Shown: positions 4,766 through 58,420, counted from the first letter of the stretch. The stretch: 64,000 nucleotides of DNA from Gammaproteobacteria bacterium (GCA_028817405.1 JAPPPS010000121.1:9139-73138); one strand, 5' to 3'. Notes: generated from the letters alone by a model not told the origin. Translations and numbers: made by a program.

Positions 4766-4790
4766 AAAACCGCCCGGCGGGGCCGGGCGG
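4764..4790 (-). terminator. intrinsic terminator (9-bp GC stem, 3-nt loop, T6 on the minus strand)
   Basis: CCGCCCGGC (4770-4778) pairs with GCCGGGCGG (4782-4790). On the plus strand A6 lies at 4764-4769, so on the minus strand the hairpin is followed by TTTTTT. Confidence 0.6.
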
Positions 4791-4805
4791 TTGGGAGTTA
4801 TCGTG

Positions 4806-4816
4806 AGGCGGTTTCT
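4806..4816. repeat. left copy of the 11-bp direct repeat AGGCGGTTTCT flanking the low-GC island
   Basis: An identical 11-mer occurs at 8281-8291. Both copies sit where base composition changes. Confidence 0.55.
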
Positions 4817-5041
4817 TTCAAGTAAGTAAGAAAACGCTCGATCGCCGCTCATCGGCGCGGCTTGCTCGCAAAGCCGGGCCATGCGCCGGCGCAGCGCGGT
4901 TAGGTGGCGGTTGATGGAAACGCGGCTCAAGCGGGTCAGGGCGGCGATTTGCACGGCGTTCAAATCCAGCGCAAACAGGCGCAAGATGCGGCGGAATTTC
5001 GCATCCGAAATTCGAGAATGGTAAACATAGCGATTTGCCAT
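4817..5041 (-). pseudogene. N-terminal stub of an IS1595-family-like transposase (HTH part only)
   Basis: MANRYVYHSRISDAKFRRILRLFALDLNAVQIAALTRLSRVSINRHLTALRRRMARLCEQ matches my memory of the N-terminal HTH region of IS1595/ISXO2-like transposases. No DDE domain follows, and the reading frame runs out of the island into unrelated sequence. Confidence 0.5.
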
Positions 5042-5140
5042 TGATAATCAACAAGTTACGCATGTTTTGCATCATTTAAGTTATCATGACTCCTTAAAAA
5101 ACCCATACACCAAAAAAGCCGGATAAGAGTCATTTCATTA

Positions 5141-15325: not shown

Positions 15326-15461
15326 GGGGAAAGTATAGCGATATTCGGGCGGCGGCGCGGGGAAATTTGGCGGCGGCGCGGCGATTTGTGTTATGGTTGC
15401 GCGCTCACCGAGTGAGACCATCCCCGCCGCCGCAACGCGCGCATGGCGGCGGCACAGCGCC

Positions 15462-26366: not shown

Positions 26367-28577
26367 TCACGCAATTCCCAGCGTGGATTTTCGGCGCGCG
26401 CTCCAGGCTTGGATGATGCGGTCGGCGATGATGGCGATGAGGGCGATGCCGAGGCCGGCGACCAGGCCGAGGCCGGGGTCAGCGTTGCTTAAGGCGATAT
26501 ACACCGACTGCCCCAAGCCGCGGCTGCCGACCAAGGCGGTGATGACCAACATCGCCAGCGCGAACAGCACGGTTTGGTTGACGCCCAACATGATTTCCGG
26601 CAGCGCCAGCGGCATTTTCACCTCCCATAATAATTGCCGGCGCGTGCATCCCATGGCGATGGCGGCCTCGACGCTGGCGGCCGGCACATGGCGCAGACCG
26701 TGTTCGGTGTATCTGATGGTGGGGACGATGGCGTACGCGATGATGGCGAGGAACGAGGTGAATTCGCCGATTTGGAAGAACATCAAAAACGGAATCAAAA
26801 TGACGAACAGCGGCATGCTCTGCAGCGTGTCGTTGATGGGGCGCAGGAAGTTGGAGACGCGGCGGTTGGCGCTCGCCCACACGCCCAACGCGCCGCCGCC
26901 GAGCGCGCACACCAGCACCGCGGCCGCGCACAAATACACCGACAGCATAGCCTGCGCCCACACGCCGGTGAGCAGCATGAAAGCCCAGCCGCCGGCCGAC
27001 AACAGCGCCACGCGCCGCCCGCCGACTTGCCACGCCAGCAGCGTACTCGCCAAAATGAACGGCGGCCACGGCAGGCCGGTGACGCCGAAATACAACACGC
27101 CGCCGCCGACCACCGCAGCCACGGCCGGCCGCCAGCCGCGCCACGCGAACAATCGCCAGGCGATGACGCCGACCGCGGCCGCATAGCCCCACACCAACCC
27201 CGGCGTCAACGCAACTCCCCATGAAAACGGCGTGACCGCTTGGCTCAAGCCGATTTTCAGCGGCAGGAGGTAGTAGAACAACGCCGCGTGTTTGACCGCG
27301 TCGGTGGCCGCGGAGTAGTTGGCGGTGACGAAACGCAGGGCCGCGTTGATGGCGTCGGCGGGGTAGAACACCCACGCCTCGGGGTAGACGCGCGCCGCGG
27401 GGATGAACGCGGTTGCGCCGGCAAAAATGGCGAGCGCGATGAGCGTGAGCAGCCATGGTTTCAGCCGGCCGTGGCGGCCGTGGCCGCGGCCACCACGGCC
27501 ACCACGGCCATGGTTGCGTGACCGGCCGGCCGCGGCTGCGCCGCGTCCGGCCCGGTCGGCGAATCCCCAACTAATGCGGTCCAACAGCATCGCAATCAGC
27601 GCGATGACGATGCCGGCAAGCAGACTCTGGCCGAACTGCGCCTTGCGCATGGTGCTCAGCACTTCCCAGCCGATGTCCGCGGAGCCGCCGATGATGGCGG
27701 CGATAATCACCATGCTGAGCGCGGCCATGGTGGTTTGGTTGACGCCGACCATGAGCGCCGGCAGCGCGCTCGGCGCCTGCACCCACCAGAATAATTGCGG
27801 CCCGGTCGCGCCGCAAATCAGGCCCGATTCCAGCGCCTCGCGCGGCACCCGGCGCAAGCCGAGCAGGGTGTTGCGCACCATCGGCGGGCAGGCGTAAATC
27901 GCGCTCGCCACCACGCCGACCACGGGGCCGAAGCCGAACAGCAACAAAATCGGAATGAGATACGCGAAGGTCGGCACCGTCTGCATTAAGTCCAGCAGCG
28001 GCTGCACCACGCGGTCGACGCGCTTTGAGCGGTGCGCGGCCACGCCGAGCGCGAAGCCGGCCGCTAACGCCAGCGGAATGGAGACCAGCACGCTGCCCAA
28101 GGTGTTCATGCTTGGCGACCAGTGGCCGGTGAGCGCCATGTAGAACAGCGCCGCGGCGGCGAACAGCGCCAGTTTCCAGCCGGAGGCGGCGAACGCCAGC
28201 GCGCAAAACGCGGCCATGGTGGCCGGCCACGGCAACCACTGCAGCAACGCCTGCGCGCCGGCCAGCGGCCACCCTAACAACCAGTTGGCGGCGCGGAACA
28301 GCCACTTGAACGCGCCGATGAACCAGACCATAAACGCGTTGAACCAGTCGGCGACCGGGACGACAAACGCCGGCGGCAGGTCCAGCAGCCACGGCGCGCG
28401 CCCGCGCAGCGCGATGCAAACCGCGGCGACGGTGATGACCGCGAGCCAAGCGGCGAGGCGGCGACGGTCGGCGGGTTTCATCAATCCGTCACCCCCGCAG
28501 TCTGTTGAGCGGGGGCGGCCAAGTCCACTGTCACCATCGATTTCACCGTCACCATCGCGCGCACCGTCACCGCGCAT
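26367..28577 (-). CDS. ABC transporter permease with two fused ProW-like transmembrane modules
   Basis: Part of ORF 26367-28580; the ATG at 28575-28577 overlaps the ATPase stop (TGATG), and an alternative ATG lies at 28481. Two similar permease modules are visible (MQTVPTFAYLIPILLLFG... and LQSMPLFVILIPFLMFFQ...). Confidence 0.8.
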   Translation of the reverse strand: MRGDGARDGDGEIDGDSGLGRPRSTDCGGDGLMKPADRRRLAAWLAVITVAAVCIALRGRAPWLLDLPPAFVVPVADWFNAFMVWFIGAFKWLFRAANWLLGWPLAGAQALLQWLPWPATMAAFCALAFAASGWKLALFAAAALFYMALTGHWSPSMNTLGSVLVSIPLALAAGFALGVAAHRSKRVDRVVQPLLDLMQTVPTFAYLIPILLLFGFGPVVGVVASAIYACPPMVRNTLLGLRRVPREALESGLICGATGPQLFWWVQAPSALPALMVGVNQTTMAALSMVIIAAIIGGSADIGWEVLSTMRKAQFGQSLLAGIVIALIAMLLDRISWGFADRAGRGAAAAGRSRNHGRGGRGGRGHGRHGRLKPWLLTLIALAIFAGATAFIPAARVYPEAWVFYPADAINAALRFVTANYSAATDAVKHAALFYYLLPLKIGLSQAVTPFSWGVALTPGLVWGYAAAVGVIAWRLFAWRGWRPAVAAVVGGGVLYFGVTGLPWPPFILASTLLAWQVGGRRVALLSAGGWAFMLLTGVWAQAMLSVYLCAAAVLVCALGGGALGVWASANRRVSNFLRPINDTLQSMPLFVILIPFLMFFQIGEFTSFLAIIAYAIVPTIRYTEHGLRHVPAASVEAAIAMGCTRRQLLWEVKMPLALPEIMLGVNQTVLFALAMLVITALVGSRGLGQSVYIALSNADPGLGLVAGLGIALIAIIADRIIQAWSARRKSTLGIA

Positions 28578-29719
28578 CAATCGCGCGCCGCCAACGCCTT
28601 AATTAATTGGACCGCGGTGACGCGGCCGACGGTCTCGCCGCCGCGCTGCACGGTGACGCCGCCCGGATGGTCGGCTAACCGCGCCATGAGTTGCTCCAGC
28701 GTGGCGGCGGCGTCGATGCGCGCATCGGTGACGGTGGAGTCACCGTCACCGGAGTCGCCAACACCGTCGAGCGTCGCCGCAGCATCGACCGTCGCCACCG
28801 TCGCAATGTCGCCGGCCGTGATAATCCGCGCGCGCGGCACTTCGCGGGTGAATTCCGCGACATATTCGTCGGCCGGATTCAAGACCAACTCCGCGGCCGC
28901 GCCGACTTGCGCGATTTCCCCGTCCTTCATAATCGCGATGCGGTCGGCCAAGCGCAGCGCTTCGAGAAAGTCGTGGGTGATGAATACGATGGTTTTGTGC
29001 AGGCGTTTTTGCAGGCGCAGGAATTCGTCCTGCATCTGGCGGCGAATCAGCGGGTCCAAGGCGCTGAACGGCTCGTCCAAAAACCACATGTCCGGCTCCA
29101 CCGCCAGACTGCGGGCGATGCCGACGCGCTGCTGCTGGCCGCCGGAGAGTTGGCGCGGGAAACTGTCTTCGCGGCCCTGCAAGCCGACCAATTCGATGAC
29201 TTCCCGCGCGCGCGCCTCGCGCTGCGGCCGGCCGATGTTCTGCACTTTCAGCGGGAACGCGATGTTGTCGAGAACGCTCAAATGCGGCAGGAGGCCGAAG
29301 TTCTGGAACACCATGCCCATCTTGTGGCGGCGGAATTCGATGAGTTCGCGCGCGCCGAGTCGCAGCAGGTCTTCGCCGTCGACCAACACCTGGCCCGCGG
29401 TCGGCTCGATGAGGCGCGATAGGCATCTGACCACCGTGGACTTGCCGGAGCCGGACAAGCCCATGATGACGAAAATCTCGCCGGTGAACACTTCGAAACT
29501 GACATTGCAAGCCGCGCCGATGTGGCCCGCGGCCTCAAATTCCTCCCACAACGCGCGGTTGTCGGGGACATCGCCGGCGTTGCGGCCGCGGTTGTCGCCG
29601 CCACCGTCGTCGCGGTTGTTGCCGCCGCCGCCACCGTCACCGTCACGGAAAAACCGCGACGGGTCATCGCCATACACCTTCCACACATGGCGGCAGGCGA
29701 TTTTGACCGGCGCGTTCAT
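28577..29719 (-). CDS. proV: glycine betaine/proline-type ABC transporter ATP-binding protein
   Basis: Start ATG 29717-29719 (MNAPVKIACRHVWKVYG). Walker A is GLSGSGKST, the signature is LSGGQQQRVGIARSL and Walker B is WFLDEPFSALD. A C-terminal CBS-like region follows, and a Gly/Asp/Asn insert sits near the N-terminus. Confidence 0.8.
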   Translation of the reverse strand: MNAPVKIACRHVWKVYGDDPSRFFRDGDGGGGGNNRDDGGGDNRGRNAGDVPDNRALWEEFEAAGHIGAACNVSFEVFTGEIFVIMGLSGSGKSTVVRCLSRLIEPTAGQVLVDGEDLLRLGARELIEFRRHKMGMVFQNFGLLPHLSVLDNIAFPLKVQNIGRPQREARAREVIELVGLQGREDSFPRQLSGGQQQRVGIARSLAVEPDMWFLDEPFSALDPLIRRQMQDEFLRLQKRLHKTIVFITHDFLEALRLADRIAIMKDGEIAQVGAAAELVLNPADEYVAEFTREVPRARIITAGDIATVATVDAAATLDGVGDSGDGDSTVTDARIDAAATLEQLMARLADHPGGVTVQRGGETVGRVTAVQLIKALAARD

Positions 29720-30850: not shown

Positions 30851-31525
30851 TTATGCATACCACCGCACAAACTGCGATGGTTGTTCGCGCAGGCGGGGTA
30901 CGGTTTTTTCACCGGGGTCGGGGTAGCCGAGCGACATGCCGCAAATCAAACGCCAGTCGTCTTCGATGCCGAGCGCGGCGCGGGCGAGGTGCGGGTAGTT
31001 TCCCCATGAGGCCTGCGAGCAAGTCGCCAAACCATGCGCGCCGGCCGCCAGCATGATGTTCTGCATGAACATGCCGATGTCCAGCAGCGAGCCGGCCGCC
31101 AAGTCGCGTTCGATGAAGAACAACAAACCGGTGTCGGCGCCGAAGAAGTAATAGTTTTGTTTCAACAAATCAATGACCGCGGGCCAGTCGATGCCGTCGC
31201 GGTCGAACTTAATGCCGCGCGCGCGGTAGATGCGCGTGCTCATGATGTGGCGGCGCAGGTTGTATTTGGCCGGCATCGGTTCCGGATAGTAGGGAATGTC
31301 CGGTTGCGGCGGCTGCATTTTTTCCGCGGCGTCGATGTAGGCCGCGGACAGTCTGCGCTTGGATTCGCCGCGCACCACCGCCACTTGCCACGGTTGCATG
31401 TTGCCGCCGGTCGGCGCGGCGGTGGCGATGCGGAGGATTTTTTCGGTCAGTTCAGGCGCGACTTTTTTGGCGGTGAACGCGCGCACCGATGCGCGCCCGG
31501 CAATCGCGTCAAGGGCGTTCATCAT
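30851..31525 (-). CDS. nitroreductase-family protein
   Basis: RASVRAFTAKKV...APTGGNMQPWQVAVV is typical of the FMN nitroreductase fold. Only 7 nt separate it from the upstream gene. Confidence 0.8.
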   Translation of the reverse strand: MMNALDAIAGRASVRAFTAKKVAPELTEKILRIATAAPTGGNMQPWQVAVVRGESKRRLSAAYIDAAEKMQPPQPDIPYYPEPMPAKYNLRRHIMSTRIYRARGIKFDRDGIDWPAVIDLLKQNYYFFGADTGLLFFIERDLAAGSLLDIGMFMQNIMLAAGAHGLATCSQASWGNYPHLARAALGIEDDWRLICGMSLGYPDPGEKTVPRLREQPSQFVRWYA

Positions 31526-31532
31526 TCAACAT

Positions 31533-32588
31533 TTATTGCGCGGCATCAACGCCCATGGACGCGCGCTCCAGCAGCGCGGTTTTATACGCCTGCTTCACCT
31601 CCGGGTCGAACAACGCGTTTTCGCTGAGCGCGATGATGTACCGTTGCGGCTCACGGTACGGCATGTCGGCCGGCGCATCGCCGCGGATGATGCCGAGCGC
31701 CATGCGGTATGCCAGCGCGCCTTGTTCATGCGGCGACACGCCGACCGACAGCAGCACGCCGTCTTCGGAGTTGAACACATTCATGCCGATGAGCGCGGCG
31801 CGGCTGTTGACTTGCGTCCAGTTGGCGACGCGCTCGGAGTCGACCCGCACGCCGCCGCGGTCCAGCAACTGACGGTAGCCGGACACCAAGATGTAATCGT
31901 AGTCGCCGGACTCGTCGATGATGAGTTGTTGCCAGGCGTCGAAGGTGTCGACATGCCGCGCGCCGCGGTAGTCGATATCGCCCCAGTCTTGTTTGGACAA
32001 GAACGCGGCGTTGTTGTGACTGGAGGTGGAGTCGTCGGCGAAGAACGCGATGGATGATGCGGACCGCGCGGATGTTTGCGCCGCGTCCGCCTCCTGAAAT
32101 TGGTCCAGTTGGTCGATGATTTTTTTCAACGCCGTGACCGGTTTATGCTCGAAGATGCCGGTGATGTTGTCGGCTTGCGCGTAGTCGTAGTCCTCCACCG
32201 AGTAGTTGACACCGGCGAACACGATGTCGATGTCCGGATGGTTCAAGTAATGGCGGGAGATGATGCGCTGCGCGGCGTCGTCCACGGCGATGATGACGCG
32301 CGGCTTGAAGGCGCGCACGGTGTCGACGAAGTTTTTCTCGATGGCCGGCGCGTTTTCGCGGTACTCCAAGTCGCGGGTGTTCATGTAGAAGTATCTAATC
32401 TGCACATCGAACTTGGATTTTTCGTACGCGCTTTTCAAACTCTGATTCACCAAGTTGGTCCACACATAACTGGTGGAATAACTGTGCAGCACCATGATGC
32501 GCGGCGTCTCGTTTGCCACGCTGATGACCAGCGAGCCGATTAACAAACAACTCACGGCCGCGGCCGCCAAGTGGGTTTTCTTGAACAT
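31533..32588 (-). CDS. exported periplasmic-binding-protein-like protein (ABC_sub_bind / sensor-type PBP fold)
   Basis: The start ATG at 32586-32588 lies after AGGAGA. The signal peptide is MFKKTHLAAAAVSCLLIGSLVISVA. PRIMVLHSYSTSYVWTNLVNQSL resembles the PBP modules found on many sensor proteins. Confidence 0.6.
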   Translation of the reverse strand: MFKKTHLAAAAVSCLLIGSLVISVANETPRIMVLHSYSTSYVWTNLVNQSLKSAYEKSKFDVQIRYFYMNTRDLEYRENAPAIEKNFVDTVRAFKPRVIIAVDDAAQRIISRHYLNHPDIDIVFAGVNYSVEDYDYAQADNITGIFEHKPVTALKKIIDQLDQFQEADAAQTSARSASSIAFFADDSTSSHNNAAFLSKQDWGDIDYRGARHVDTFDAWQQLIIDESGDYDYILVSGYRQLLDRGGVRVDSERVANWTQVNSRAALIGMNVFNSEDGVLLSVGVSPHEQGALAYRMALGIIRGDAPADMPYREPQRYIIALSENALFDPEVKQAYKTALLERASMGVDAAQ

Positions 32589-32602
32589 GATTCGCTCTCC
32601 TG

Positions 32603-35600
32603 TTAGTCGCCGTTCGGTCGATGTTGAGTCGCGTGGTCGCCGGCCGCGGCCGGCGCCGGCATGCGAAACGGATTCAGGTTTTCGCCGCGCGCCGCGCTCA
32701 GCAGCAGCAAGCCGATGTCGGCCTGGCCGTGAATCGCGCCGGGCAGAAAAGCATCGTCGGCCCATTGGTCCGGAAACCACCGACCGGATATGCGCCGGCG
32801 CGCGATGAGTTCGGCGAGATGGCGTTGGAATTGCGCGCGCGAGTCACCGTCGCGGCCGGCGGAGAGAAAATGATAGGCGCGGTCGAGCAGCGTCTCACAG
32901 CACAAATCGCGCAAGGGTTGCGGCGACGGTGTATCAACGGTCGATGCGGATTTTACCGCGCCGTGGTCGGCAATAAACCGTTGCAGTTTGCGGTAGCCGG
33001 CATGCGTTATTAACTTGGGCCAATGCGTACGCATCATGCGGTCGAGGTTTTTCATGTCATGCGCCGGCGACAACGCATCGGCGTATTTCCGATAAGCATC
33101 GGTTTGCGGCGGGCTGAGTTGCAACGCATTGGATTCAACCGCGTTCAAGATGCGCGCAAGCCATGCGGCCACGGTGTCGGCGGCGAACAACCGCGCCAAG
33201 TCGGGGAAGCGGCACAGCAAACCGCTGACACCGTGCCGCGCATCCGCGCACAAGGTTTTCGCCGCGGTTAAATTGTCGAGATGCTGGTTCATCATGCGCG
33301 CGATGGTTTGCGTTGCATCAAAATCAATTTCGGTCTGCGTTTGCGCCAAACAGCACAGCGCGGTTAATCGGCCGCCGAAGTTGCTGAGCGCGCCGCCGCC
33401 TTCCGCCATGCCGCGCGCATCGAAGGGAAGCATGCGCGGCGCGGCATCGTCGAGCAAGTACCGCCCGCATCGCGCCAACGCGGTGTCGATGGCGATGGCA
33501 TCGATTTCGGCGATGGCGGCGGCATCGGCGACATCAACTCCGCGATAGTGCCGCAGTTGGGCGAGGAAAACAACCGCGCCGGCCGCGCCGTGGTAATCGG
33601 CCGGCAGCGGTTGCAGCGCGCGGATGTTGTTCAGTTGCGCGCGGCCGATGGCGAGATAACCGCGCAGTGCGTCAACGCGGTTCAAATCGGCCGCCAGTTG
33701 CGCGCCGGTTTGTTGCGCCAATTCCAGCAGTTCTTGTTTCGCTACTTTCGCCGCCGCGGTCGCCGCCGAATCTTTCGCTACTTTCGCCGCCGCGGTCGCC
33801 GCCGAATCGCCGCCGGCCGGCCGCCAACGCCGGCGCGGGTGGTCCGGCCGGGTGGAAAACAACGCTTTGATGTGCCGCGCTTGGCGGTCGATTTCCTTGC
33901 GCAGATAAACCCGGTTGCGGGTGATTTTAGCCAGCGCGGTGTCGCTGAAAAAATCCGCTTGCGTGGCATCGCCCGCGGTGTTGAACAGTTTCAAACTGTC
34001 GCTTTGCATCTCGAACAGCGGCACATCGTTGCGCCACGCATCGCGGCGCAGGCCTTCGACCACGCGGTGCGGATAACGGCAAAACCGTACGCACACACCG
34101 TCCAGCAGAATCGCCGCGCGTACGCCGTCGGTGCGGCAGCCGCTGAACACCGCGCGCAACAACGCATAGCATGACCAAGTGTCGATGACGATGTGACGAA
34201 ACCGCGCGCGCTTAATGCGGCGGCGAAAGCGTTGCAGCGCGGCGCGCCCGGCGGTCGATTCGAGCAACGCCGCCATGCGCCGGTAGCCGGCGATAAAATG
34301 CTCCAGATAATCGTTCATGTCTTGAAACTGGCCGCGGTAAAACGGCGCATAATCGGATGCTTCAAAGTCATCATGAAATCCGCCGACGGTACCGTTGTCT
34401 TTTGGAAACGGAATCGACTGCTTGCCGGGTTTGGTGACGACGCTGATGTCGATGCCGTCGGCCAATGAGGCGTCGACTGCGCCGGGCATCAACAGCGGCA
34501 GAATGCCAATCAGTTGCATTTGGTAAAACATCTCGACATGTTCATCGTTCATCGCGTTGCGTTCATGCTTTTCATCGCCGAAAAAATGGCGCGCGACACT
34601 GTTGCCGACCACGGTCTCGTAATCGATGAAAGTCGGCATGTCGCCGCAGGCGATGAGGTTGTCATACCAAAAATCATTGCCGTTTAACAACTGCAACAAA
34701 AACAACCAGCCGCCGAGGCGACGGTAAAAAGTTTCGACTTCGGCCGTCGAGTCGCATTCGCGCGCGACCACGCGACGCTCCCAGCCGTAGCCGCGGCGGC
34801 GCAGAAACTCCGGGGCCAAGGGTACAAAGTTTCCGCGCGCCGGTTGCGCATCAAACAGTTCGCGCAATAACCGCCCGGCCGCGCGGGTGCCGGCCAAGTC
34901 TTTCGGTTTATAAACCACATCGCCGCAGTCGGTCTCGATAATCGCCACCGAACGGCCGCCGCGATGCGGGTCGCCGAGGCCGCAGCGCAAGCGCGACACG
35001 GTGATTGCGCCGCCACCGTCGCCGCCGGCCGCGCGCAAGAAACCCGCGTCGCGCAAGCGCGGCGCATCGGTTTTGAAACGCGTCAGCATCTCCGCGGTGG
35101 AAGTCCGCCACAAATGCGTCAAGTGACCGATGACATGCGCCAAAATCGGCTGGCGGTCAAACGCGTTTTCCCAGAACGCAAACGCGCGCAAAAAACGCCA
35201 ACGGTCACCGTCGCCGTCATCACCGTCGCCGGCGCGCGCGCCGGGCCACGCGCTCAACACCGCGAACACCGGCGTCGCCAAACGCAAGGTTAGATACTCC
35301 AACAAATCATCGACCGCGGCGTCGGTCAGTTGGATGCCGGCCGCCCGCAGTTCATCGCGCCGCGCCTGCGTCCACGCCCGGCTGCATTCGGCCCACACCG
35401 CGGTCAGCAGCAAATGCGGTTTGCCCGGCGGCGCGGTGGCGGCCGCGGGCGCGCACGGTGCGGCATGCCAACGGTGTTGCAACTCGATGAAAGTCGCGGC
35501 CCATGCCGGCAAATACTGCGGCGCGCGCACCACATAATCGCGCAAACCGTCGCGCCATTCGGCCTCGGTTAAACCGCGCGCGCGCAGCAGAGCGGTTTTT

Positions 35601-35791
35601 AACGCGGCTAATTCTTCGGCGGATGCCGCGGCCGAATCACCGGGCGCAAACACCGCTTCCCAACTGGCGCAACGGTCTTCCACCACCACCGCGTCTTGTT
35701 CATCGGCCGCGGCGAAAGCCCGGCAGCGCAACCGTTCCTCAGGGAAACTGGCGCGCGCAATCCAACTGTGCAGGCGTTCGGTGTCGGACAT
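32603..35791 (-). CDS. LanM-like (class II lanthipeptide synthetase-like) protein: DUF4135-type dehydratase region plus LanC-like C-terminal region
   Basis: Part of ORF 32603-35803; the track start is GTG 35803, with an ATG at 35789-35791. A kinase-like block reads NGNDFWYDNLIACGDMPTFIDYE. C-terminal G-rich toroid-like repeats include YHGAAGAVVF, ARHGVSGLL and AIHGQADIGLLLL. The size of about 1060 aa fits LanM. Confidence 0.65.
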   Translation of the reverse strand: MSDTERLHSWIARASFPEERLRCRAFAAADEQDAVVVEDRCASWEAVFAPGDSAAASAEELAALKTALLRARGLTEAEWRDGLRDYVVRAPQYLPAWAATFIELQHRWHAAPCAPAAATAPPGKPHLLLTAVWAECSRAWTQARRDELRAAGIQLTDAAVDDLLEYLTLRLATPVFAVLSAWPGARAGDGDDGDGDRWRFLRAFAFWENAFDRQPILAHVIGHLTHLWRTSTAEMLTRFKTDAPRLRDAGFLRAAGGDGGGAITVSRLRCGLGDPHRGGRSVAIIETDCGDVVYKPKDLAGTRAAGRLLRELFDAQPARGNFVPLAPEFLRRRGYGWERRVVARECDSTAEVETFYRRLGGWLFLLQLLNGNDFWYDNLIACGDMPTFIDYETVVGNSVARHFFGDEKHERNAMNDEHVEMFYQMQLIGILPLLMPGAVDASLADGIDISVVTKPGKQSIPFPKDNGTVGGFHDDFEASDYAPFYRGQFQDMNDYLEHFIAGYRRMAALLESTAGRAALQRFRRRIKRARFRHIVIDTWSCYALLRAVFSGCRTDGVRAAILLDGVCVRFCRYPHRVVEGLRRDAWRNDVPLFEMQSDSLKLFNTAGDATQADFFSDTALAKITRNRVYLRKEIDRQARHIKALFSTRPDHPRRRWRPAGGDSAATAAAKVAKDSAATAAAKVAKQELLELAQQTGAQLAADLNRVDALRGYLAIGRAQLNNIRALQPLPADYHGAAGAVVFLAQLRHYRGVDVADAAAIAEIDAIAIDTALARCGRYLLDDAAPRMLPFDARGMAEGGGALSNFGGRLTALCCLAQTQTEIDFDATQTIARMMNQHLDNLTAAKTLCADARHGVSGLLCRFPDLARLFAADTVAAWLARILNAVESNALQLSPPQTDAYRKYADALSPAHDMKNLDRMMRTHWPKLITHAGYRKLQRFIADHGAVKSASTVDTPSPQPLRDLCCETLLDRAYHFLSAGRDGDSRAQFQRHLAELIARRRISGRWFPDQWADDAFLPGAIHGQADIGLLLLSAARGENLNPFRMPAPAAAGDHATQHRPNGD
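33737..33808. repeat. perfect 36-bp in-frame tandem duplication
   Basis: TTTCGCTACTTTCGCCGCCGCGGTCGCCGCCGAATC occurs twice. It duplicates DSAATAAAKVAK in the LanM-like protein. Confidence 0.95.
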
Positions 35792-35858
35792 GAATCGCGG
35801 CACGGTGTTACCAACGGCGATACGTTAACGCGGCATCGACATGAAAACGCGCATCAAC

Positions 35859-35945
35859 ATCAACTCGCCGTCGACACAGCATCAAGTCACCGTCGATACT
35901 ATCAACTCGCCGTCGACACGCTATCAAGTCGCCGTTGGCGACAGT
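35859..35945. repeat. ~42-bp tandem repeat (A-B-A-B pattern of ~21-bp subunits) spanning the SagB-like stop codon and the intergenic gap
   Basis: The four subunits read ATCAACTCGCCGTCGACACAGC / ATCAAGTCACCGTCGATACT / ATCAACTCGCCGTCGACACGCT / ATCAAGTCGCCGTTGGCGACAGT. Confidence 0.85.
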
Positions 35946-37633
35946 CGCGCTTCATGCATCGCGGCGCAGGTTTCCAGGTCGATGGCGTTGTAGTCGAAGT
36001 CGGCCGGCAAACTGCCGAGCATAAACTCGCCGATGTTGCATTCGATGTGCGGTTGGTTGCCGGTCGCGCGGCAGAACAAATCGGTGTTGCCCGCGCCCAA
36101 GCCGCAGCCGGCCAAACCCATCGCGACCGCGTGCAGGTAGAAAGTTTGATACACCACGCCGGCGTTGCGCAGCATGGTGGCGTAGGCGATGTTGTGATAC
36201 TTCCAACTCACGCGCTGAAACCGCGCCGCGATATGCACCACCACTTGCGGGCGAACGATGCGCGCGCAACTGTCAAACGCGGTTTGAATCAAGCCTTCGG
36301 TGTATTGGTTGCGGCCGCTGAGTTTAACCAACGCATGCGCGGCCGGCGCGTAGTAGTAAATGCCGGGCGCGAGGTCTTGCGCGCGGTCGACGCTGAGATA
36401 AAACTCCAGTTCATAACTCGCGCCGCCGGTCGGATACGGCCGCCACGCCAAGCCCATGCCGGTTTGCTTGGCCGGTGCGCGCAGGTTGCTGACGCGCGTC
36501 TCAGTCTCGAACAACAGCCGCCCGGTGCGGAACAAAAACTCGCCGAGTTGTTTGAGCGACACCGGCGCGTCCTCGTTATACGCGCGCACGCTCATGCGCT
36601 GAATGACGACTGCGCTCAAGCGTTTGTCGGTCGCGGCCATTCGTTGCAAGTCGGGTTGGTATAACGCGATGCGTTCGCCGGCCGGCAATTCCTTGACCGC
36701 GGGACGCGGCGCGATGATGTCGACGAAAGGAAACGCGCCGCCGAAGTCGAAGCCGAAGTTGTAACCGAGGCGGCTGTGCGCGTGACTCAATGCATCGTGG
36801 AAGTCCCACTGCTGCATGGCGGCGTCGCCTTCTTCCAAGCGCGTCGGCAGGCGGGTGGAATCCGCCGCGGCGTCGATGATGAATTGTTCACGGTAAAGAA
36901 GGTTAAGCAGCGTGGCGATGCCGGCGAATAAATCATCACCGTTGTCGTCGCTGGCGTTGGCGCGGTCGCATTGGTCGCGAATGGCGCGCACCGTCATGCC
37001 GCGGCCCAAGTCAACCAACAGTTTACCCGCGGCCGAGTCGCGGATAACGAATCGCTTGTCTTTCAGCGGCCGCGACAAATACAATTCATCCTCTTCACGG
37101 TGCAGATAAGCGAAGCGCGACAGGGTGAGTTTGGTGGCGTCGCTCAAGCCCGGCGGCGCGGATACATCCGGCAATTCCCGGCCCGCGTGACTGAACTCGA
37201 TGTCCGCCAACGCCCGGCCGCGCGACGTGGCGATGCCCAGCGTGAGAATGTTGTTGAACAACAGCGCCGCGGTTTGCAACAACCCGAAATGACTGTCAAC
37301 GCCGGCCAATGCATCGCGGAAATCGCGCAACGGTACGGCCGAATCGCCGGAGTCGCCGCCACCGTCGCCCGCATCATCGCCGCCACCGTCGCCGCCTGCC
37401 TTATCGCCACCGCCGCCCATTTCATTCAACCAAACCAACGCGCGCTTCAACGACAAACTCACCGGAATGGTGTTGCGAAAACCGTCGCCGCCATTACCGT
37501 CGCCGCCGGCCGCACTTAAATCATGCGCGATGTCCACTTCGTTCGCGCCGTCGACCGGCGTCAAACTCACGCCGCGCCGCACGCGCACGGTGACCTGCGC
37601 CTGCTTCATCAAGTCGGTGATGAACACCGTCAT
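35924..37633 (-). CDS. SagB/ThcOx-type dehydrogenase with a ~300-aa N-terminal extension
   Basis: The C-terminal nitroreductase-like domain reads RAYNEDAPVSLKQLGEFLF...RPYPTGGASYELEFYL...GIYYYAP. The start ATG overlaps the stop of the upstream FAD oxidase (ATGA). Confidence 0.7.
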   Translation of the reverse strand: MTVFITDLMKQAQVTVRVRRGVSLTPVDGANEVDIAHDLSAAGGDGNGGDGFRNTIPVSLSLKRALVWLNEMGGGGDKAGGDGGGDDAGDGGGDSGDSAVPLRDFRDALAGVDSHFGLLQTAALLFNNILTLGIATSRGRALADIEFSHAGRELPDVSAPPGLSDATKLTLSRFAYLHREEDELYLSRPLKDKRFVIRDSAAGKLLVDLGRGMTVRAIRDQCDRANASDDNGDDLFAGIATLLNLLYREQFIIDAAADSTRLPTRLEEGDAAMQQWDFHDALSHAHSRLGYNFGFDFGGAFPFVDIIAPRPAVKELPAGERIALYQPDLQRMAATDKRLSAVVIQRMSVRAYNEDAPVSLKQLGEFLFRTGRLLFETETRVSNLRAPAKQTGMGLAWRPYPTGGASYELEFYLSVDRAQDLAPGIYYYAPAAHALVKLSGRNQYTEGLIQTAFDSCARIVRPQVVVHIAARFQRVSWKYHNIAYATMLRNAGVVYQTFYLHAVAMGLAGCGLGAGNTDLFCRATGNQPHIECNIGEFMLGSLPADFDYNAIDLETCAAMHEARLSPTAT

Positions 37634-39261
37634 AACGGCGGCAGCACCTTGCCGGGGTTCAACACTTCATGCGGGTCCAGCGCGCGTTTGATTCGCCGGT
37701 ATAAATCCAACTCCACCGCGTCTTTGTAGCGCGCCATCTCCTCCAACTTGGTGATGCCGATGCCGTGCTCGGCGCTGAACGAGCCGCCGAGTTGGTGCGC
37801 GATTTCATGCACGATGCGGTTCATCGGCCGCCATTGTTTGAGGAACTGTTGTTTGTCCATGTCCGGCGGCTGCGAGATGTTGAAGTGAATGTTGCCGTCG
37901 CCCATGTGACCGTACGGATACGCGCGCGCGCCTGGCATGGCGTCGCCAACCGCGGCATGCACGCGGCGGATAAACTCCGGCACTTGCGCGACCGGCACCG
38001 ACACATCGTGCTTGATGCTGCCGCCTTCAAAGTTCTGCGCTTCGACGATGTTCTCGCGCAACAAAATCAAACGCTGCGCCTGGCTCTCGCTGTCGGCGAT
38101 GACCGCGTCTTCCAGCACACCGTCTTCCAGCGCGCGCGCCAAGCCGGCCTCCATCTCGTGCCGCAGGTTGCCGCCGCCGCCACTGTCACCGTCACCGTCA
38201 CCGTTACTGTTACTGTTACCGTCGCCGTCATCGGCGCTACTGTCGGCGACGATGAGCGCATACCAATCATGTTCGCCGCCGAGCGGGTCGGTCTGGCCCG
38301 CGATGTGTTTGACCGCGGATTGCACCGCGATGTTCGCCATCAACTCGAAGGTGCTGAGGCGCGCGCTGCTGGCCTCGCGCAGGCGGCCGAGCAACTCCAA
38401 CGCCGCGTCCGGATTCGCCAAACCGGCCACCACCACCACCCGGCATTTCGGCGCGGGGAAGAGTTTCAGCGTGGCCGCGGTGATGATGCCGAGCGTGCCT
38501 TCGGAGCCGATGAGGAGGTTTTTCAGGTCGTAGCCGGTGTTGTTTTTGCGCAAGGAATTCAAGCCGTCCCAGATGCGGCCGTCAGCCAGCACCGCCTGCA
38601 CGCCGAGCACCAAGTCGCGGGTGTTGCCGTAGCGCAAGACGTTGATGCCGCCGGCGTTGGTCGCCAAGTTGCCGCCGATTTGGCAACTGCCTTGCGCGCC
38701 GAGGCTCAATGGAAAAAACCGCCCGACTGCGGCCGCCGCGGCCTGTACATTGGCGAGAATGCAGCCGGCTTCCACGCGCATGGTGTCGTTCACCGGGTCG
38801 ACTTGCGAGATGCGGTTCATGCGCGCGAGGTTGAGGATGACTTGCGAGGCGCGCGCCACCGCCCCGCCCATCGCGCCGGTGTTGCCGCCCTGCGGCACGA
38901 TGCTGACCCCGGCCGCGGCGCAGCACTTGACCACCTCCGCGACTTGCGCGGCATCGGCCGGCAACACCACCGCGCGGCAGGCGCTGCTGTACCGGCCGCG
39001 CAACTCCTCGGTGTACGGCCGCAGTTTGTCGCCGCCGGTGACCAAGTGTTTGCCGCCGACGATGCGCGCTAGGCGGTCGAGTAAATTGGACGCTGCGGAC
39101 GCTGCCGCGGCCGACGTTCCCACGGTCGACGCGGCCGACGCGTCCACGGCGGATGCTCCCACGGCGGCCGCGGTCGCCTCCGCGGCCGATGCGGCGGAAT
39201 CGGTGGCGGCGGAATTGGCGGCGGCCGGCGCGGTCACCCCCGACGGCGAATTGGTTTGCAC
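37630..39261 (-). CDS. FAD-linked oxidase (GlcD / D-2-hydroxyacid dehydrogenase-like)
   Basis: VPQGGNTGAMGGAV and LIGSEGTLGIITAATLKLFP are FAD_binding_4-type blocks. The track start is GTG 39261, followed by an Ala/Ser-rich ~55-aa leader, so the true start is uncertain. Confidence 0.8.
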   Translation of the reverse strand: MQTNSPSGVTAPAAANSAATDSAASAAEATAAAVGASAVDASAASTVGTSAAAASAASNLLDRLARIVGGKHLVTGGDKLRPYTEELRGRYSSACRAVVLPADAAQVAEVVKCCAAAGVSIVPQGGNTGAMGGAVARASQVILNLARMNRISQVDPVNDTMRVEAGCILANVQAAAAAVGRFFPLSLGAQGSCQIGGNLATNAGGINVLRYGNTRDLVLGVQAVLADGRIWDGLNSLRKNNTGYDLKNLLIGSEGTLGIITAATLKLFPAPKCRVVVVAGLANPDAALELLGRLREASSARLSTFELMANIAVQSAVKHIAGQTDPLGGEHDWYALIVADSSADDGDGNSNSNGDGDGDSGGGGNLRHEMEAGLARALEDGVLEDAVIADSESQAQRLILLRENIVEAQNFEGGSIKHDVSVPVAQVPEFIRRVHAAVGDAMPGARAYPYGHMGDGNIHFNISQPPDMDKQQFLKQWRPMNRIVHEIAHQLGGSFSAEHGIGITKLEEMARYKDAVELDLYRRIKRALDPHEVLNPGKVLPPL

Positions 39262-39913: not shown

Positions 39914-40033
39914 GCGAACGCGCGCCCGGCGCCCGGCATTTGAATCGTTTCGACCGTTTGAACCGTTGAACCGTTTAGCGAACGCGCCCCGCGTTTGAAT
40001 CGTTTCAACCGTTCAACCGTTCAACCGTTTGAA
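39914..40033. repeat. imperfect ~60-bp tandem duplication containing arrays of the 8-mer NAACCGTT
   Basis: GCGAACGCGC...TTTGAATCGTTTC...(GAACCGTT)x2 is followed by GCGAACGCGC...TTTGAATCGTTTC(AACCGTTC)x3. Confidence 0.85.
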
Positions 40034-40062: not shown

Positions 40063-40242
40063 ATGGCGCTTTGGGAACAACTGTTAGTCGGCGGCCTCGC
40101 GCTGTTGGTGTTGCTGTGGGTCCTGCCGGGACTCAAACCCATGTTGGCGGCAAGCAAAAAAGCCCCCAAAGACTGGCCCGGCCTCCTCATCCCCATCGCC
40201 GCCGTAATCGCATTCGTAATCTTTTTAGCCGCGACGATGTAA
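40063..40242 (+). CDS. small hypothetical membrane protein (59 aa, two hydrophobic segments)
   Basis: The sequence is MALWEQLLVGGLALLVLLWVLPGLKPMLAASKKAPKDWPGLLIPIAAVIAFVIFLAATM. It has a clean two-TM pattern but I know of no homology. Confidence 0.4.
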   Translation: MALWEQLLVGGLALLVLLWVLPGLKPMLAASKKAPKDWPGLLIPIAAVIAFVIFLAATM

Positions 40243-40293: not shown

Positions 40294-43125
40294 TTAAAAC
40301 TTCTTCCCAAACCGCAGCCACACCAATCTTTGCGTGGGCGCGTCGGGGTTGTGGCCGGGGTGGCGGGTGAGTTGTACGCCGAGCGATAAGTCGCCGCCGG
40401 CGATGGTGGATGGGGGGGCGCGCCAGGCGATTTCGGCTTCCAGGGCGCGGGCGCGCGGTTGCAGGTCGACCGCGATGTCGTCGTAGCGCACCACGCCGTA
40501 GCGGCTGCGCGCGGTGGCGAGGCGCAGTTGCGCGCGGCCGGATTCGGCGCGCAGCGGCTGGCTCAACCGCAAGCCCAACCAGTCGCCGCGGCGCAGCGCC
40601 GAGGCGCGCGCCAGGCCTAAGCTGAACGCCGAACTGCGCAAGCCGGACACGCCGCGCAGGATGCCCGGCGCGCGGTCCGGCCCGGTGCGGGTTTGCCCGA
40701 CATAACCCGCGGCCTGCGCGCGCCAGTGGCGGCCGGCGCGCCACGCCAAGCCCGCGCCGGCGAACAGCGTCTCGCCGCGCGCCGCGCCGACCGCGCCGCG
40801 GCCGCGCGCGCCGAGGAAGCCCTCGGCCTCGCGCACCAGCCCGGCCTGCAGGCGCAACGCGCCGCGGCCGGAGGCGTAAGCGTGCGGAGCGAAGTTGAAC
40901 GCCACCGCGCTGCCGCGCCGCCAGTCGTCCGCGCCGCCGTCGGCAACCGCCGCGCCGCGCATCACCGCCAGGCCGAATCGCCCGCGGCCCGCGGCCGCGG
41001 AAAACCCGCCGCCGAAGCCGTGCCGCACCAGCGAAAAATACGGCGCGGCGAACGCATGCGGCGCGAGGAAGGCCGGCGCGGCAACGCCATCGCCATCGCC
41101 AAAACCGCCGCCGCCGAGCCCGTGCCGGCCGCCGCCGAATCCGCCGCCGGCAAAACCGGCGCGGCCCGCGCGCACCGTGCCATCGTCGCCAAATCCATCA
41201 CCGTCGCCGAAATCGCCGAAAACCCCGAATCCGCCGTCCAACCCCGCCCCGCTGTTGTATTTTGGCGCGAACCACCACCGCCGCCCCTGGCCGTCCCCCG
41301 CGCGCAGCAGCATCGCATCGGCGGTCGCGGCCGCCTCCGCCGCCGCCAATTCCGCGCCGGCCGCGGCCGGCGCGGGCGCGTGTACCAATTGGTCCGCGGT
41401 GAAGAAAAACGGCGAATCGAGCGCATCGAACAACACCAGCGGCGTATCGCGCAACGCGTGCGACACGGCGTCGCCAAACGCGCCGCGGGGAATCTCCAAC
41501 GCGGTCGATTCTGCCGCCACCCGCCGGCCGTCCGCGGTCGATGCCATCAGCATCCCCGCCGGCCGCGTGGCCGCGTCCAGGTCGAGCAGGCCGTGGCCGT
41601 AGGTGTCGGAGTCGGCGTAGATGCCGGTGCGGTCGGCGGTGGCCAAAAGCCGAGTTACCAATTCCGTGTTGCCGAGGGCCGGCTCGCCGGCCATCGGGGA
41701 GCCGGGCGGATTGCGGAAGAATTGACGCATCACGGCGAGCGCGCCGGTGACCATCGGCGCGGCGAAGGATGTGCCTCCTTGGACCTGGAAACGGCTTTCG
41801 CAGGATAAATCGCCGAGGGAACTGACGGAGCAATCGCCGCGCCGCGCCACCCACATAGTGCCGCCGGGCGCGGCCAAGCAGAATCCTTTGGCGGTGCCGC
41901 AACGGTTGGAAAAACTGGCGATGCTCCCTTGCTGGTCCACCGCGACCACGGCAAGCACATGACCTTGCAACTCCGGGAAATGCACGCCGAGGGCGGTTTC
42001 CAGGGTCGGCGAAGTGGCGTCAATCGCTCCGCCCGCTTCAAATTCGCCGGGGTCCAGTCGACCGTTGCCGTTTCGGTCGATGTCGTATCGGTCGCCATAT
42101 TCATTGCCGGCTGACCACACGATGATGGTGCGGTCAGCGGCGTCACGGTGGGCTTGTGCGAACAGCGCGGCGGTGCGGTCGCGGTTGGCGCGCACATCGG
42201 CGCGGGTGTAGGAGTCGACACCGTGGGGGCGGCCAAAACTGAAGTTGATGACGAATCCCCACGGGTTGTTGCGGTCGTAGCCGCTGCCGCCGGCGTTGGG
42301 GCGGTAGATGAGGCGTTCATAAAACTCGACGTTGTCGTCGTCGCCTTGGTCGGTGAGGTCGCGCGGGCCGGTGTTCGGCACAGTGCCGCCGCCGGCGCCC
42401 AAGCGCACGCGCAGGCCGATGATGTTGGCGTCAAAGGCGACGCCGCTGGTGGTGGTGTCGCCGTTGCCGCGGCGACCGGCGGCGATGGCCGCGGTGCCGG
42501 TACCGTGGTCGTCGCTGCAGGTGCGGCTGGCCAGTTCTTGCGGGGTGCATGGCGTGCCGAAAGTGGCGCCGAGGGTGAACTTGTCGGCGCGCCCGCCGAA
42601 CTCGCTATGCCCGATAAAAAAGCCGCTGTCGGCGAACACCACGGTCTCGCCGGCGCCGGTCGCACCGCGCGCCCAAGCGTGGGATGTGTGGACTAACGCG
42701 TGGCGACGGTCGCCGCCGACGATTCTCCGCATAGAATCACGGTAGTCCAAGTTGTATTCGGTCAACTCATACAACCGCCGGTTCGCCATGAACGCCGCGC
42801 TTTCCGTGGGGTGGGTGAAAGCGAACGGGTCGCCGGGGTCGGTGTCGACCGCGGTGCGGGGAAAGGGCGGCGGAGTAGGCGTCGGCGCGGGCGGGGGTGC
42901 CGGGGGAGGGGCCGGCGGCGGCATCGGTGCGGGCGGTGGTGCCGGTGGCGGCGCGGGCGGCGGTGTCGGGTCTGGCATGGTCCCCGGTACCGATGGCGTG
43001 GGCGGCGCGGGCGTGGCTGTCACTTCTTCATTATTCGTAGTCGCCGGCCCACCGCCCCCCCCGCCGCCGCCCCCGCCACAACCGGCGAGCAGCAAAACCG
43101 CGGCGATGGTCAGGAACAGCCTCAT
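40294..43125 (-). CDS. lipoprotein S8 (subtilisin-family) serine protease with C-terminal autotransporter-like beta-domain
   Basis: The start is ATG 43123-43125 and the lipobox is LLLAGC. A G10 run and a Pro/Ala linker follow. The catalytic triad blocks are VVFADSG, DDHGTGTA and GGTSFAAPMVTG. The C-terminus ends in LVWLRFGKKF, an OMP-type terminal Phe. Confidence 0.8.
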   Translation of the reverse strand: MRLFLTIAAVLLLAGCGGGGGGGGGGPATTNNEEVTATPAPPTPSVPGTMPDPTPPPAPPPAPPPAPMPPPAPPPAPPPAPTPTPPPFPRTAVDTDPGDPFAFTHPTESAAFMANRRLYELTEYNLDYRDSMRRIVGGDRRHALVHTSHAWARGATGAGETVVFADSGFFIGHSEFGGRADKFTLGATFGTPCTPQELASRTCSDDHGTGTAAIAAGRRGNGDTTTSGVAFDANIIGLRVRLGAGGGTVPNTGPRDLTDQGDDDNVEFYERLIYRPNAGGSGYDRNNPWGFVINFSFGRPHGVDSYTRADVRANRDRTAALFAQAHRDAADRTIIVWSAGNEYGDRYDIDRNGNGRLDPGEFEAGGAIDATSPTLETALGVHFPELQGHVLAVVAVDQQGSIASFSNRCGTAKGFCLAAPGGTMWVARRGDCSVSSLGDLSCESRFQVQGGTSFAAPMVTGALAVMRQFFRNPPGSPMAGEPALGNTELVTRLLATADRTGIYADSDTYGHGLLDLDAATRPAGMLMASTADGRRVAAESTALEIPRGAFGDAVSHALRDTPLVLFDALDSPFFFTADQLVHAPAPAAAGAELAAAEAAATADAMLLRAGDGQGRRWWFAPKYNSGAGLDGGFGVFGDFGDGDGFGDDGTVRAGRAGFAGGGFGGGRHGLGGGGFGDGDGVAAPAFLAPHAFAAPYFSLVRHGFGGGFSAAAGRGRFGLAVMRGAAVADGGADDWRRGSAVAFNFAPHAYASGRGALRLQAGLVREAEGFLGARGRGAVGAARGETLFAGAGLAWRAGRHWRAQAAGYVGQTRTGPDRAPGILRGVSGLRSSAFSLGLARASALRRGDWLGLRLSQPLRAESGRAQLRLATARSRYGVVRYDDIAVDLQPRARALEAEIAWRAPPSTIAGGDLSLGVQLTRHPGHNPDAPTQRLVWLRFGKKF
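43055..43062 (-). repeat. homopolymeric G8 (C8 on the top strand) inside the 5' coding region of the S8 autotransporter
   Basis: Read directly. It lies 16-23 nt downstream of the lipobox Cys codon (43078-43080). Confidence 0.9.
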
Positions 43126-43327
43126 CGCCGATAATTTACCCCACCGCCGCCGCCGTGTTAACCCTCCCGGCCCCAATTCGCCGCCGGCCTCGCCCGGCAA
43201 AAAACGCTACCATCGCGCGCCGCCGTTGCCGGGGAAACCGGGGAAACCGCGCCCCCGCCGCCGAATACCGGTTATCATCGCCGCATCTCGCACCGCAGAA
43301 AGAATCGAAATTTCCTGTTTTTTTTTC

Positions 43328-49373: not shown

Positions 49374-58420
<9,047 letters not shown>

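Follow-up and report, generated by a model that had tools for sequence, protein, structure and literature searches.

The closest described relatives of the system considered here are the dehydrazole RiPPs (peptides that are made by ribosomes and then modified post-translationally) made with a LanMbC-type dehydratase, CcaM (Pei, Zhu & Nair, Nat Commun 2023; PMC10676384). In these pathways, a YcaO protein and a dehydrogenase first put azoles on an NHLP precursor (PMC10676384). The defining trait of LanMbC/CcaM is a zinc-independent LanC-like domain, and CcaM-type dehydratases do not need the leader peptide: they recognize the azole-bearing core and require an azole beside the target Ser (PMC10676384). 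A cluster of uncultured Ca. Thioglobus, known from a bioinformatic description only, contains two YcaO/dehydrogenase pairs, one LanMbC and several precursors (PMC10676384). Nostatin A, from the nst cluster of Nostoc, is an isolated NHLP proteusin with repeating dehydroalanine (Dha)/dehydrobutyrine (Dhb)-azole-X units (PMC11583998), and the Dha/Dhb-azole units of carnazolamide and nostatin A come from the same enzyme set (PMC10676384, PMC11583998). The srp proteusins of sponges, which are brominated azole peptides, are distinguished by an LCCCW core and a flavin halogenase. Here we describe a 64,000-nt stretch of DNA from Gammaproteobacteria bacterium (GCA_028817405.1, JAPPPS010000121.1:9139-73138; hereafter the window), which carries a block of five minus-strand genes at 30851-39261. 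Four of the five, at 30851-37633, constitute a module comprising an azoline oxidase, a LanMbC-type dehydratase, a nitroreductase and a periplasmic-binding-protein-like (PBP-like) protein; the fifth encodes a flavin adenine dinucleotide (FAD)-linked oxidase. We consider it likely that the module is the tailoring part of a dispersed dehydrazole-type NHLP RiPP pathway, with a YcaO pair, and presumably the precursors and exporter, encoded elsewhere. The features of the block are as follows.

37630..39261, minus strand: FAD-linked oxidase gene, GlcD-like, 543 aa (PF01565 + PF02913)
35924..37633, minus strand: SagB/ThcOx-type oxidase gene, 569 aa (TIGR03605, PF22767)
35858..35935, strand not given: 22-nt tandem repeat, 3.7 copies (TRF score 96; repeat families D1/D2)
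32603..35791 (ATG) or 35803 (GTG), minus strand: LanM-like (LanMbC-type) gene, 1062 aa from the ATG (PF13575)
31533..32588, minus strand: PBP-like gene, 351 aa (PF04392 sub-cutoff + N-terminal hydrophobic segment)
30851..31525, minus strand: small NfnB-like flavin mononucleotide (FMN) nitroreductase gene, 224 aa (PF00881)

A preliminary description of the locus had presented the 1062-aa protein as a LanM-like enzyme with a dehydratase domain and a LanC-like cyclase. The dehydratase was readily detected (DUF4135, PF13575; E 5e-59). By contrast, the cyclase assignment did not hold: a hidden Markov model search gave no match to Pfam LANC_like (PF05147) and the zinc ligands are gone, although the fold is still LanC-like. 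The protein scored 226 bits against TIGR03897, under the cutoff of 304. Residues K295 (in YKPK), D373, N378, D390, R532 and T538 are invariant across 22 members of its clade, and the kinase set (K295, D373/N378, D390) and the elimination residues (R532/T538) align with those of CylM and LicM2. The position of CylM His349 is occupied by Trp375. An AlphaFold (AF2) model computed on the clade alignment (predicted local distance difference test, pLDDT, 82.5; predicted template modelling score, pTM, 0.86) matched LicM2 and CylM across ~1050 columns and also matched the class I cyclase MadC, indicating that the C-terminal half of the protein is a LanC-like barrel. When aligned with PF05147-bearing LanMs, the clade lacked the WCxG cysteine and the whole CHG motif, both of which were carried by nine of the ten PF05147-bearing proteins. 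Judged by these motifs, the protein is without a zinc site. It matches a LanMbC-type dehydratase, the correspondence with CcaM being one of described traits and not of sequence. By analogy with CcaM, its predicted targets for dehydration are Ser/Thr residues standing immediately before an azole.

Homology searches with this protein recovered a clade (P0001-P0024) of proteins of ~1000 aa that share 27-96% identity with it, mostly over their full length. In nearly all of them, DUF4135 was the only Pfam match, and true LanMs matched the query over the dehydratase half only. P0023, from Ca. Thioglobus, is 27% identical to the window LanMbC across 98% of its length. The exact window protein occurs on sponge-metagenome contigs and is recorded at NCBI as MDD9812041.1, from a metagenome-assembled genome (MAG) named Gammaproteobacteria bacterium.

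The assignment of the 569-aa protein as a SagB-type dehydrogenase was confirmed by TIGR03605 (132 bits; cutoff 78.4). The protein comprises N-terminal ThcOx/RRE-like domains (ThcOx, PF22767; E 4e-18) and an FMN nitroreductase-fold domain, and its closest solved structures are those of CyaGox (5lq4 and 8pz5; E 1e-62). Its sequence contains the WKY motif, whose Lys-Tyr we take to be essential in SagB/ThcOx azoline dehydrogenases. It is 44-58% identical to its YcaO-linked gammaproteobacterial relatives and 35% identical to that of L015, one of the more distant loci described below. The window thus combines three dehydrazole traits, namely intact dehydratase residues, a zinc-free LanC-like domain and an azoline dehydrogenase; a co-localized YcaO and an NHLP precursor with a Ser/Thr/Cys-rich core are the traits that it does not have.

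The 224-aa protein is, as first described, a second nitroreductase-fold protein (PF00881; E 2e-29). Among solved structures, it is closest to classical nitroreductases, namely 3gr3 (1e-38) and NfnB (2wzv), and not to SagB-type enzymes. The corresponding gene follows the LanMbC gene in loci L003-L006, L009-L013 and L035, with 40-68% identity between the proteins, and was not detected in loci L014-L016. It is a candidate second azoline dehydrogenase, or a reductase; Pei et al. likewise assumed that a flavin nitroreductase acts as a second azoline dehydrogenase (PMC10676384). The label PBP-like for the 351-aa protein is less secure than first described: PF04392 (ABC_sub_bind) matched weakly in all 4 orthologues, but at 24.2 bits (E 2e-5) the window protein is under the cutoff of 25.9. 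It carries an N-terminal hydrophobic signal or anchor segment. A profile search against the PDB returned nothing significant, and a single-sequence AF2 model was poor (pLDDT 44). The PBP-like gene adjoins the module in L003/L009 (Ca. Spongiihabitans; 61% identity) and adjoins exporter genes in L006/L010, which include an Arenicellales MAG (36% identity); it was not detected in the remaining relatives' loci. We class the PBP-like protein as an optional accessory within this family of clusters.

To place the module among its relatives, we compared 11 distinct distant loci (L003=L009, L004=L011, L005, L006, L010, L012-L016 and L035). These were from assemblies of sponge symbionts and other uncultured bacteria with GC contents of 31-70%, and those with organism titles were assigned to Ca. 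Spongiihabitans, an Arenicellales MAG, several small gammaproteobacterial MAGs and Ca. Marinacidobacterium. A scan of Joint Genome Institute (JGI) metagenomes with the LanMbC alignment yielded a single distant locus (L035) and missed L007/L008. In all 11 loci, the oxidase and LanMbC genes are adjacent to each other and adjoin one or two YcaO genes (~800 aa) and one to eight precursor genes. The small nitroreductase gene follows in 8/11, and most of the loci contain C39-ABC exporters bearing a C39-peptidase. The precursors are 95-138 aa long, and their NHLP-type leader is followed, after an '..AAG'-like junction, by a core rich in Gly/Ala/Ser/Thr/Cys. The recurrence of the oxidase/LanMbC adjacency across unrelated GC backgrounds indicates that it is more than chance. 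Precursors A1-A3 of the published Ca. Thioglobus cluster matched the precursor profile built here (E 2e-24 to 5e-14). An identity with the srp proteusins was rejected: the relatives' cores are long, rich in Gly/Ala/Ser/Thr/Cys and without Trp, and no halogenase was present in the gene calls of the relatives' loci looked up.

These comparisons alter the preliminary description, which had recognized no described pathway in this gene set. Orthologues of the oxidase, the LanM-like protein and the nitroreductase occur in complete clusters, and the pathway type has been published (PMC10676384). The suggestion of a RiPP-like system was a good one, as the relatives' clusters carry YcaO genes and NHLP precursors. 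The accompanying suggestion of an unconventional substrate is contradicted by those same NHLP precursors and by a YcaO pair on another contig. Finally, the gene-neighbourhood comparison upheld the oxidase/LanMbC pair and, in most loci, the nitroreductase, but not the five-gene set as a unit: the FAD oxidase gene occurs in none of the 11 distant loci and the PBP-like gene in only some. On the exporter side of L006 (1285-7738) and L003 (173-6766), two uncharacterized proteins of 443 and 373 aa, with no Pfam match on record, are encoded together with a PBP-like paralogue, a Na/sulfate-type symporter and a TolC-like outer-membrane efflux protein beside the C39-ABC genes.

The window clade, consisting of the window (identical to L001/L002) and L007/L008, has an organization of its own. 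Its LanMbCs share 66% identity and its loci have 64-65% GC. It alone has no YcaO, precursor or exporter beside the module, and has folE and the FAD oxidase gene upstream instead. Relative to L007, all five genes are intact, with ratios of non-synonymous to synonymous substitution rates (dN/dS) of 0.25 (nitroreductase), 0.30 (PBP-like), 0.27 (LanMbC), 0.26 (oxidase) and 0.26 (FAD oxidase); that of folE is 0.15. The remainder of the window is core chromosome, with tuf, nusG, rplKAJL and rpoBC at 44.5-58.4 kb (rpoB at 49374-53543). In a neighbour-joining tree of the LanMbC clade, the window clade lies inside clades of YcaO-linked members (neighbours whose loci were examined: P0008-P0010, P0016, P0019-P0021 and P0024). 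This nesting indicates that the dispersal is derived.

We then sought the partners of the module outside the window. A search using the closest YcaO as query identified a set of 822-844-aa proteins with 65-69% identity, whose sources mirror those of the window-clade LanMbCs. One of them, P0185 (MDD9811036.1), which has diverged to the degree expected, belongs to the same accession series as the window protein MDD9812041.1, and a second MAG shows a parallel pairing (MDD9855946/7 and MDD9856111). In the corresponding YcaO locus, L019 (GC 0.644), the gene order is MoaE-MoaD-MoCF-YcaO(843)-YcaO(873)-GST-MTTB-MsbA-LpxK-KdsB-rplM-rpsI; the YcaO pair is isolated among housekeeping genes. Both proteins are fused leader-binding (TIGR03882) and SagD-type (TIGR03604) cyclodehydratases. 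They are orthologous to the Ca. Spongiihabitans pair, with 65% and 54% identity, in parallel with the 48-65% of the module genes.

Homologues of the precursors were found on short contigs of high-GC-type composition. L024 contains MoaD-MoCF-HemX-HemY, seven tandem NHLP precursors and then a Fer2 reductase; L027 contains three NHLP precursors next to a transporter of the major facilitator superfamily (MFS). The cores delimited in these stand-alone arrays consist of 39-61% Ser/Thr/Cys, with 5-8 S-[S/T/C] dipeptides per core. At the nucleotide level, L024 and L019 share 80% identity across their left flanks, and the right flank of L024 shares 84.5% with window positions 390-1414. These identities tie L019 and the window to one lineage. 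Overall, the YcaO pair is very probably on another contig of the same MAG.

The precursor arrays and YcaO pair at L024 4114-7124, L027 219-1457 and L018 10001-14839 stand in differing housekeeping contexts, being flanked by HemY and the Fer2 reductase (L024), the MFS transporter and YggT (L027) and an aldehyde dehydrogenase (L018). Pieces of the pathway seem to have moved repeatedly in the relatives of the window organism. Several of the precursor cores matched a thiocillin-family RiPP model, NF033482, weakly.

The FAD-linked oxidase had been named as a GlcD-like partner of the pathway. Its FAD_binding_4 and FAD-oxidase_C domains were confirmed. However, its GlcD identity was not: it scored 268 bits against the GlcD equivalog TIGR00387, far under the cutoff of 568, and its sequence supports the generic FAD-linked oxidase fold only. 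Nor did the proposed partnership fare better. Only the window clade (L001, L002, L007 and L008) has this gene beside the module, YcaO-linked loci never do, and its codon composition is that of the housekeeping neighbours. More specifically, the GC content at third codon positions (GC3) is 0.84 for the FAD oxidase gene and 0.80-0.86 for this gene, folE, the PBP-like gene and other neighbours, as against 0.73-0.79 for the LanMbC, oxidase, nitroreductase and both YcaO genes. This split fits a common origin of the RiPP genes and a resident FAD oxidase. Given its absence from the YcaO-linked relatives and its neighbour-like codons, the FAD oxidase gene is more likely to be a co-transcribed neighbour than part of the pathway, and probably represents a resident gene of the 2-hydroxyacid dehydrogenase type behind which the module lies.

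Taken together, the family assignments suggest the following scheme. Two fused E1-like/YcaO cyclodehydratases, such as those of L019, would turn Cys, Ser and Thr residues of ~40-residue, Gly/Ala/Ser/Thr/Cys-rich cores into azolines. The ThcOx/CyaGox-type flavoprotein (35924-37633) would then oxidize the azolines to azoles. If the LanMbC acts as CcaM does, it would dehydrate the Ser/Thr residues that precede the azoles, and it would form no lanthionine rings because its LanC-like domain is without a zinc site. The NfnB-like nitroreductase may serve as a second redox tailoring enzyme and the PBP-like protein as an accessory. The module would act in trans on peptides encoded elsewhere, which is conceivable because CcaM-type dehydratases do without the leader. 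The upstream FAD oxidase would most likely be a neighbouring housekeeping gene on a shared transcript.

Several observations weigh against a dispersed pathway. As the preliminary description had noted, YcaO, LanT-type exporter and precursor are all absent from the 64-kb window: tblastn found neither a YcaO nor a C39/LanT-type exporter in it, and a sensitive profile found no NHLP precursor (E <= 1e-3). The precursor genes of the window organism itself were not found, 0/20 precursor clusters looked up being linked to the MAG by accession or name, and in the window the site syntenic with the L024 array is taken up by genes for a thioesterase and an acyl-CoA dehydrogenase. The YcaO pair was assigned to the same genome by accession proximity, composition and the triangulation through L024, and not by a closed assembly. 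The roles given to the small nitroreductase and PBP-like protein are putative, and the enzymes of the window subfamily are known from sequence only. The ATGA overlap between the FAD oxidase and azoline oxidase genes is also present in the L007 gene call, and a pathway role of the FAD oxidase is possible.

One way to account for the missing genes would be a cluster that broke up, with the module as its remnant; precursors or exporter having been lost, the peptide would no longer be made. The failure to find a precursor or exporter for the exact lineage is consistent with such an orphan, as is the syntenic precursor site, which is filled by other genes and adjoined by a low-GC mobile island. Nevertheless, all four genes have stayed intact across two lineages with a dS of 0.37-0.68 between them, with dN/dS of 0.25-0.30; the catalytic residues are invariant; and both YcaO paralogues have been kept intact. 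Moreover, short precursor contigs typically drop out of binned MAGs. We therefore regard a remnant as unlikely. Similarly small is the chance that the module has been rewired, being co-translated with the FAD oxidase and a secreted PBP-like protein to give a product or substrate unlike those of the clustered relatives, such as the redox conversion of an N-terminal 2-oxoacyl/lactyl group made from Dha, or a peptide that is a sensed or re-imported signal.

The preliminary description had envisaged a self-contained new pathway, in which all five genes, including those of the FAD oxidase and PBP-like protein, would act on a protein or small-molecule substrate without a YcaO or classical precursor. 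The five-gene block and the start/stop overlap of the FAD oxidase gene are indeed kept in L007/L008, and the PBP-like gene is tightly linked. Yet orthologues of the oxidase, LanMbC and nitroreductase reside in classical YcaO/NHLP clusters, among which the window clade is nested, and the YcaO pair has been retained in the lineage. The FAD oxidase gene is never found with the module outside the window clade and has a housekeeping-like GC3, and CcaM-type enzymes require an azole beside the target Ser. A self-contained pathway is accordingly quite improbable. DUF4135, the partial TIGR03897 match and the LanM-like fold would also suit a genuine class II lanthipeptide system, with LanA and LanT encoded elsewhere and the SagB-like and nitroreductase genes as unrelated neighbours. 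This we consider hardly credible: the TIGR03897 score is sub-cutoff, PF05147 is absent, no LanA or LanT was found in the 64-kb window, and the loss of both Cys ligands and the CHG motif makes zinc-dependent cyclization impossible. In addition, the adjacency of the oxidase gene is kept in all of the relatives and that of the nitroreductase gene in most. The preferred reading is thus that of a tailoring module acting within a dispersed dehydrazole-type pathway, and the genes of this pathway are probably scattered across several chromosomal loci of a sponge-associated gammaproteobacterium.

The tight packing of the five minus-strand genes was as originally described. The ATGA overlap of the FAD oxidase and SagB-like genes (37630-37633), the 14-nt spacer containing AGGAGA (caggagagcgaatc) ahead of the PBP-like ATG at 32588, and the 7-nt spacer between the PBP-like and nitroreductase genes (31526-31532) were all seen in the sequence. 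The repeat-filled gap between the SagB-like and LanM-like genes measures 120 nt from the GTG at 35803, and 132 nt if the LanM-like gene starts at the ATG at 35791, as in public gene calls. The protein on public record is the 1062-aa ATG form; the 1066-aa GTG form has no exact match. According to TRF, this spacer is occupied by the 22-nt repeat, within which there is a weak sigma-70-like match (35927-35898, minus strand). The corresponding spacer of L007/L008 measures 86 nt and carries degenerate repeats of the TTGATG type; that of L003-L006 is 7-18 nt, per gene calls. The repeat spacer is a possible internal promoter or regulatory site.

Repeats also occur within the genes. A perfect 36-nt in-frame duplication (DSAATAAAKVAK x2) lies in the disordered linker of the LanMbC (33737-33808), a CCGTCA x9 in-frame repeat (38177-38230) encodes a GDGDGD insert in the FAD oxidase, and a 12-nt in-frame repeat (37352-37396) lies inside the SagB-like gene. 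Gly/Asp-rich inserts of a similar kind are present in the acyl-CoA dehydrogenase at 2051-4063. The window lineage appears to be prone to low-complexity insertions.

Three neighbours of the block were evaluated as missing pathway components and rejected. The conserved 59-aa open reading frame (ORF) downstream of folE (40063-40242, plus strand), a potential hidden precursor, specifies a membrane protein with two hydrophobic helices; the gene calls of L001, L002, L007 and L008 include it too, and tandem repeats of 8-9 nt (TTTGAACCG / TTCAACCG) lie ahead of it at 39939-40030. An S8 subtilase (40294-43200, minus strand) was a candidate for a leader peptidase like CcaF, but L007 has ComEC in its place and the relatives' loci showed no copy of it. 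Its ~940 aa include a lipobox (LLLAGC) and a Pro-rich linker, and the C-terminal region, ending in ...RFGKKF, resembles an autotransporter barrel (NalP/SphB1-like on our reading). The downstream OpuAC/ProV/ProW transporter, considered as the exporter, is a betaine/choline-type importer and is not kept after the module in L007. Its ProW-like ABC permease (26367-28580, minus strand), downstream of the ProV-like ATPase and OpuAC protein, is of double length, with 737 aa and two BPD_transp_1 domains.

Elsewhere in the window, a low-GC island at 4090-8075 (0.51-0.54 versus 0.64 overall) lies next to the site equivalent to that of the L024 array. It contains, in order, a 172-aa ORF, a small transposase- or helix-turn-helix-like ORF, two ORFs without assigned function, a possibly ParB-like ORF (6796-7176, by eye) and a D12-class adenine methyltransferase (7173-8075). 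A second stretch of lower GC (0.55) contains, at 12197-15463, the gene for a Type ISP restriction-modification enzyme of 1088 aa (Type_ISP_C, 9e-81, and N6_Mtase), and a further methylase with an Mrr_cat nuclease domain is encoded at 22754-24256.

On this interpretation, the odd gene mix of the window is the tailoring half of a published RiPP class and not a new type of system. The analysis documents a sponge-symbiont subfamily of dehydrazole-type pathways, known here from genes alone, whose parts are two YcaO proteins, a CyaGox-like oxidase, a zinc-free LanM-like dehydratase, an NfnB-like nitroreductase and NHLP precursor arrays. In one lineage, the genes are split into the module, the YcaO pair and the precursor array, the array being that of a close relative. 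Tolerance of such dispersal is plausibly explained by the ability of CcaM-type dehydratases to work without the leader. A wider and rather unlikely possibility is that sponge symbionts operate multi-enzyme RiPP pathways whose genes are fully dispersed, which cluster-based genome mining would systematically miss. Under antiSMASH-style rules, the window locus would probably be called an incomplete lanthipeptide cluster and the links between loci would be missed. The scattered layout is of moderate interest for the genome mining of sponge symbionts.

Compared with known systems, the window shares with the cca cluster of Chryseobacterium carnipullorum, which specifies carnazolamide, DUF4135 with a zinc-independent LanC-like domain and a SagB-type dehydrogenase. 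The window's relatives further share with it YcaO genes, NHLP precursors with Ser/Thr/Cys-rich cores and a predicted product containing azoles and dehydroalanines. Unlike cca, the window module has no linked YcaO or precursor, no radical S-adenosylmethionine (rSAM) epimerase and no methyltransferase; its relatives use C39-ABC exporters and not a dedicated S8 leader peptidase; and two YcaO paralogues, an extra NfnB-like nitroreductase and a PBP-like protein are found on the window side. The Ca. Thioglobus 'cluster 39' has a LanMbC of the same clade and homologous precursor families, and contains two YcaO genes, two flavin dehydrogenase/nitroreductase genes, one LanMbC gene and several divergent NHLP precursors. 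All of these lie together, whereas the pathway of the window lineage occupies at least two, and probably three or more, loci in a 64% GC background in which many proteins have low-complexity insertions. By description, the nst cluster likewise combines a cyclodehydratase, an oxidase and a LanM-like dehydratase; its own features are rSAM enzymes, a methyltransferase, a sactionine bridge and its organization as a single cluster.

The two-domain fold and the kinase/lyase residues are shared with the class II LanMs CylM (5dzt) and LicM2 (6st5). In contrast to these, the window protein has neither the zinc ligands nor PF05147 and falls under the TIGR03897 cutoff, and thioether rings are not expected. 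Among cyanobactin enzymes, ThcOx/CyaGox and PatD-like proteins offer the nearest likenesses: the oxidase is closest to CyaGox, and the YcaO proteins have the fused leader-binding and YcaO architecture of ~800 aa. However, neither a PatA/PatG-type protease/macrocyclase nor a PatE-type precursor was found, and the leaders are of the NHLP type. In the prochlorosin systems, ProcM acts in trans on precursors scattered around the genome. The arrangement proposed here differs in that the modifying enzymes are split as well, into the YcaO pair and the oxidase-dehydratase module, and in that the predicted chemistry is of azoles and Dha rather than lanthionine.

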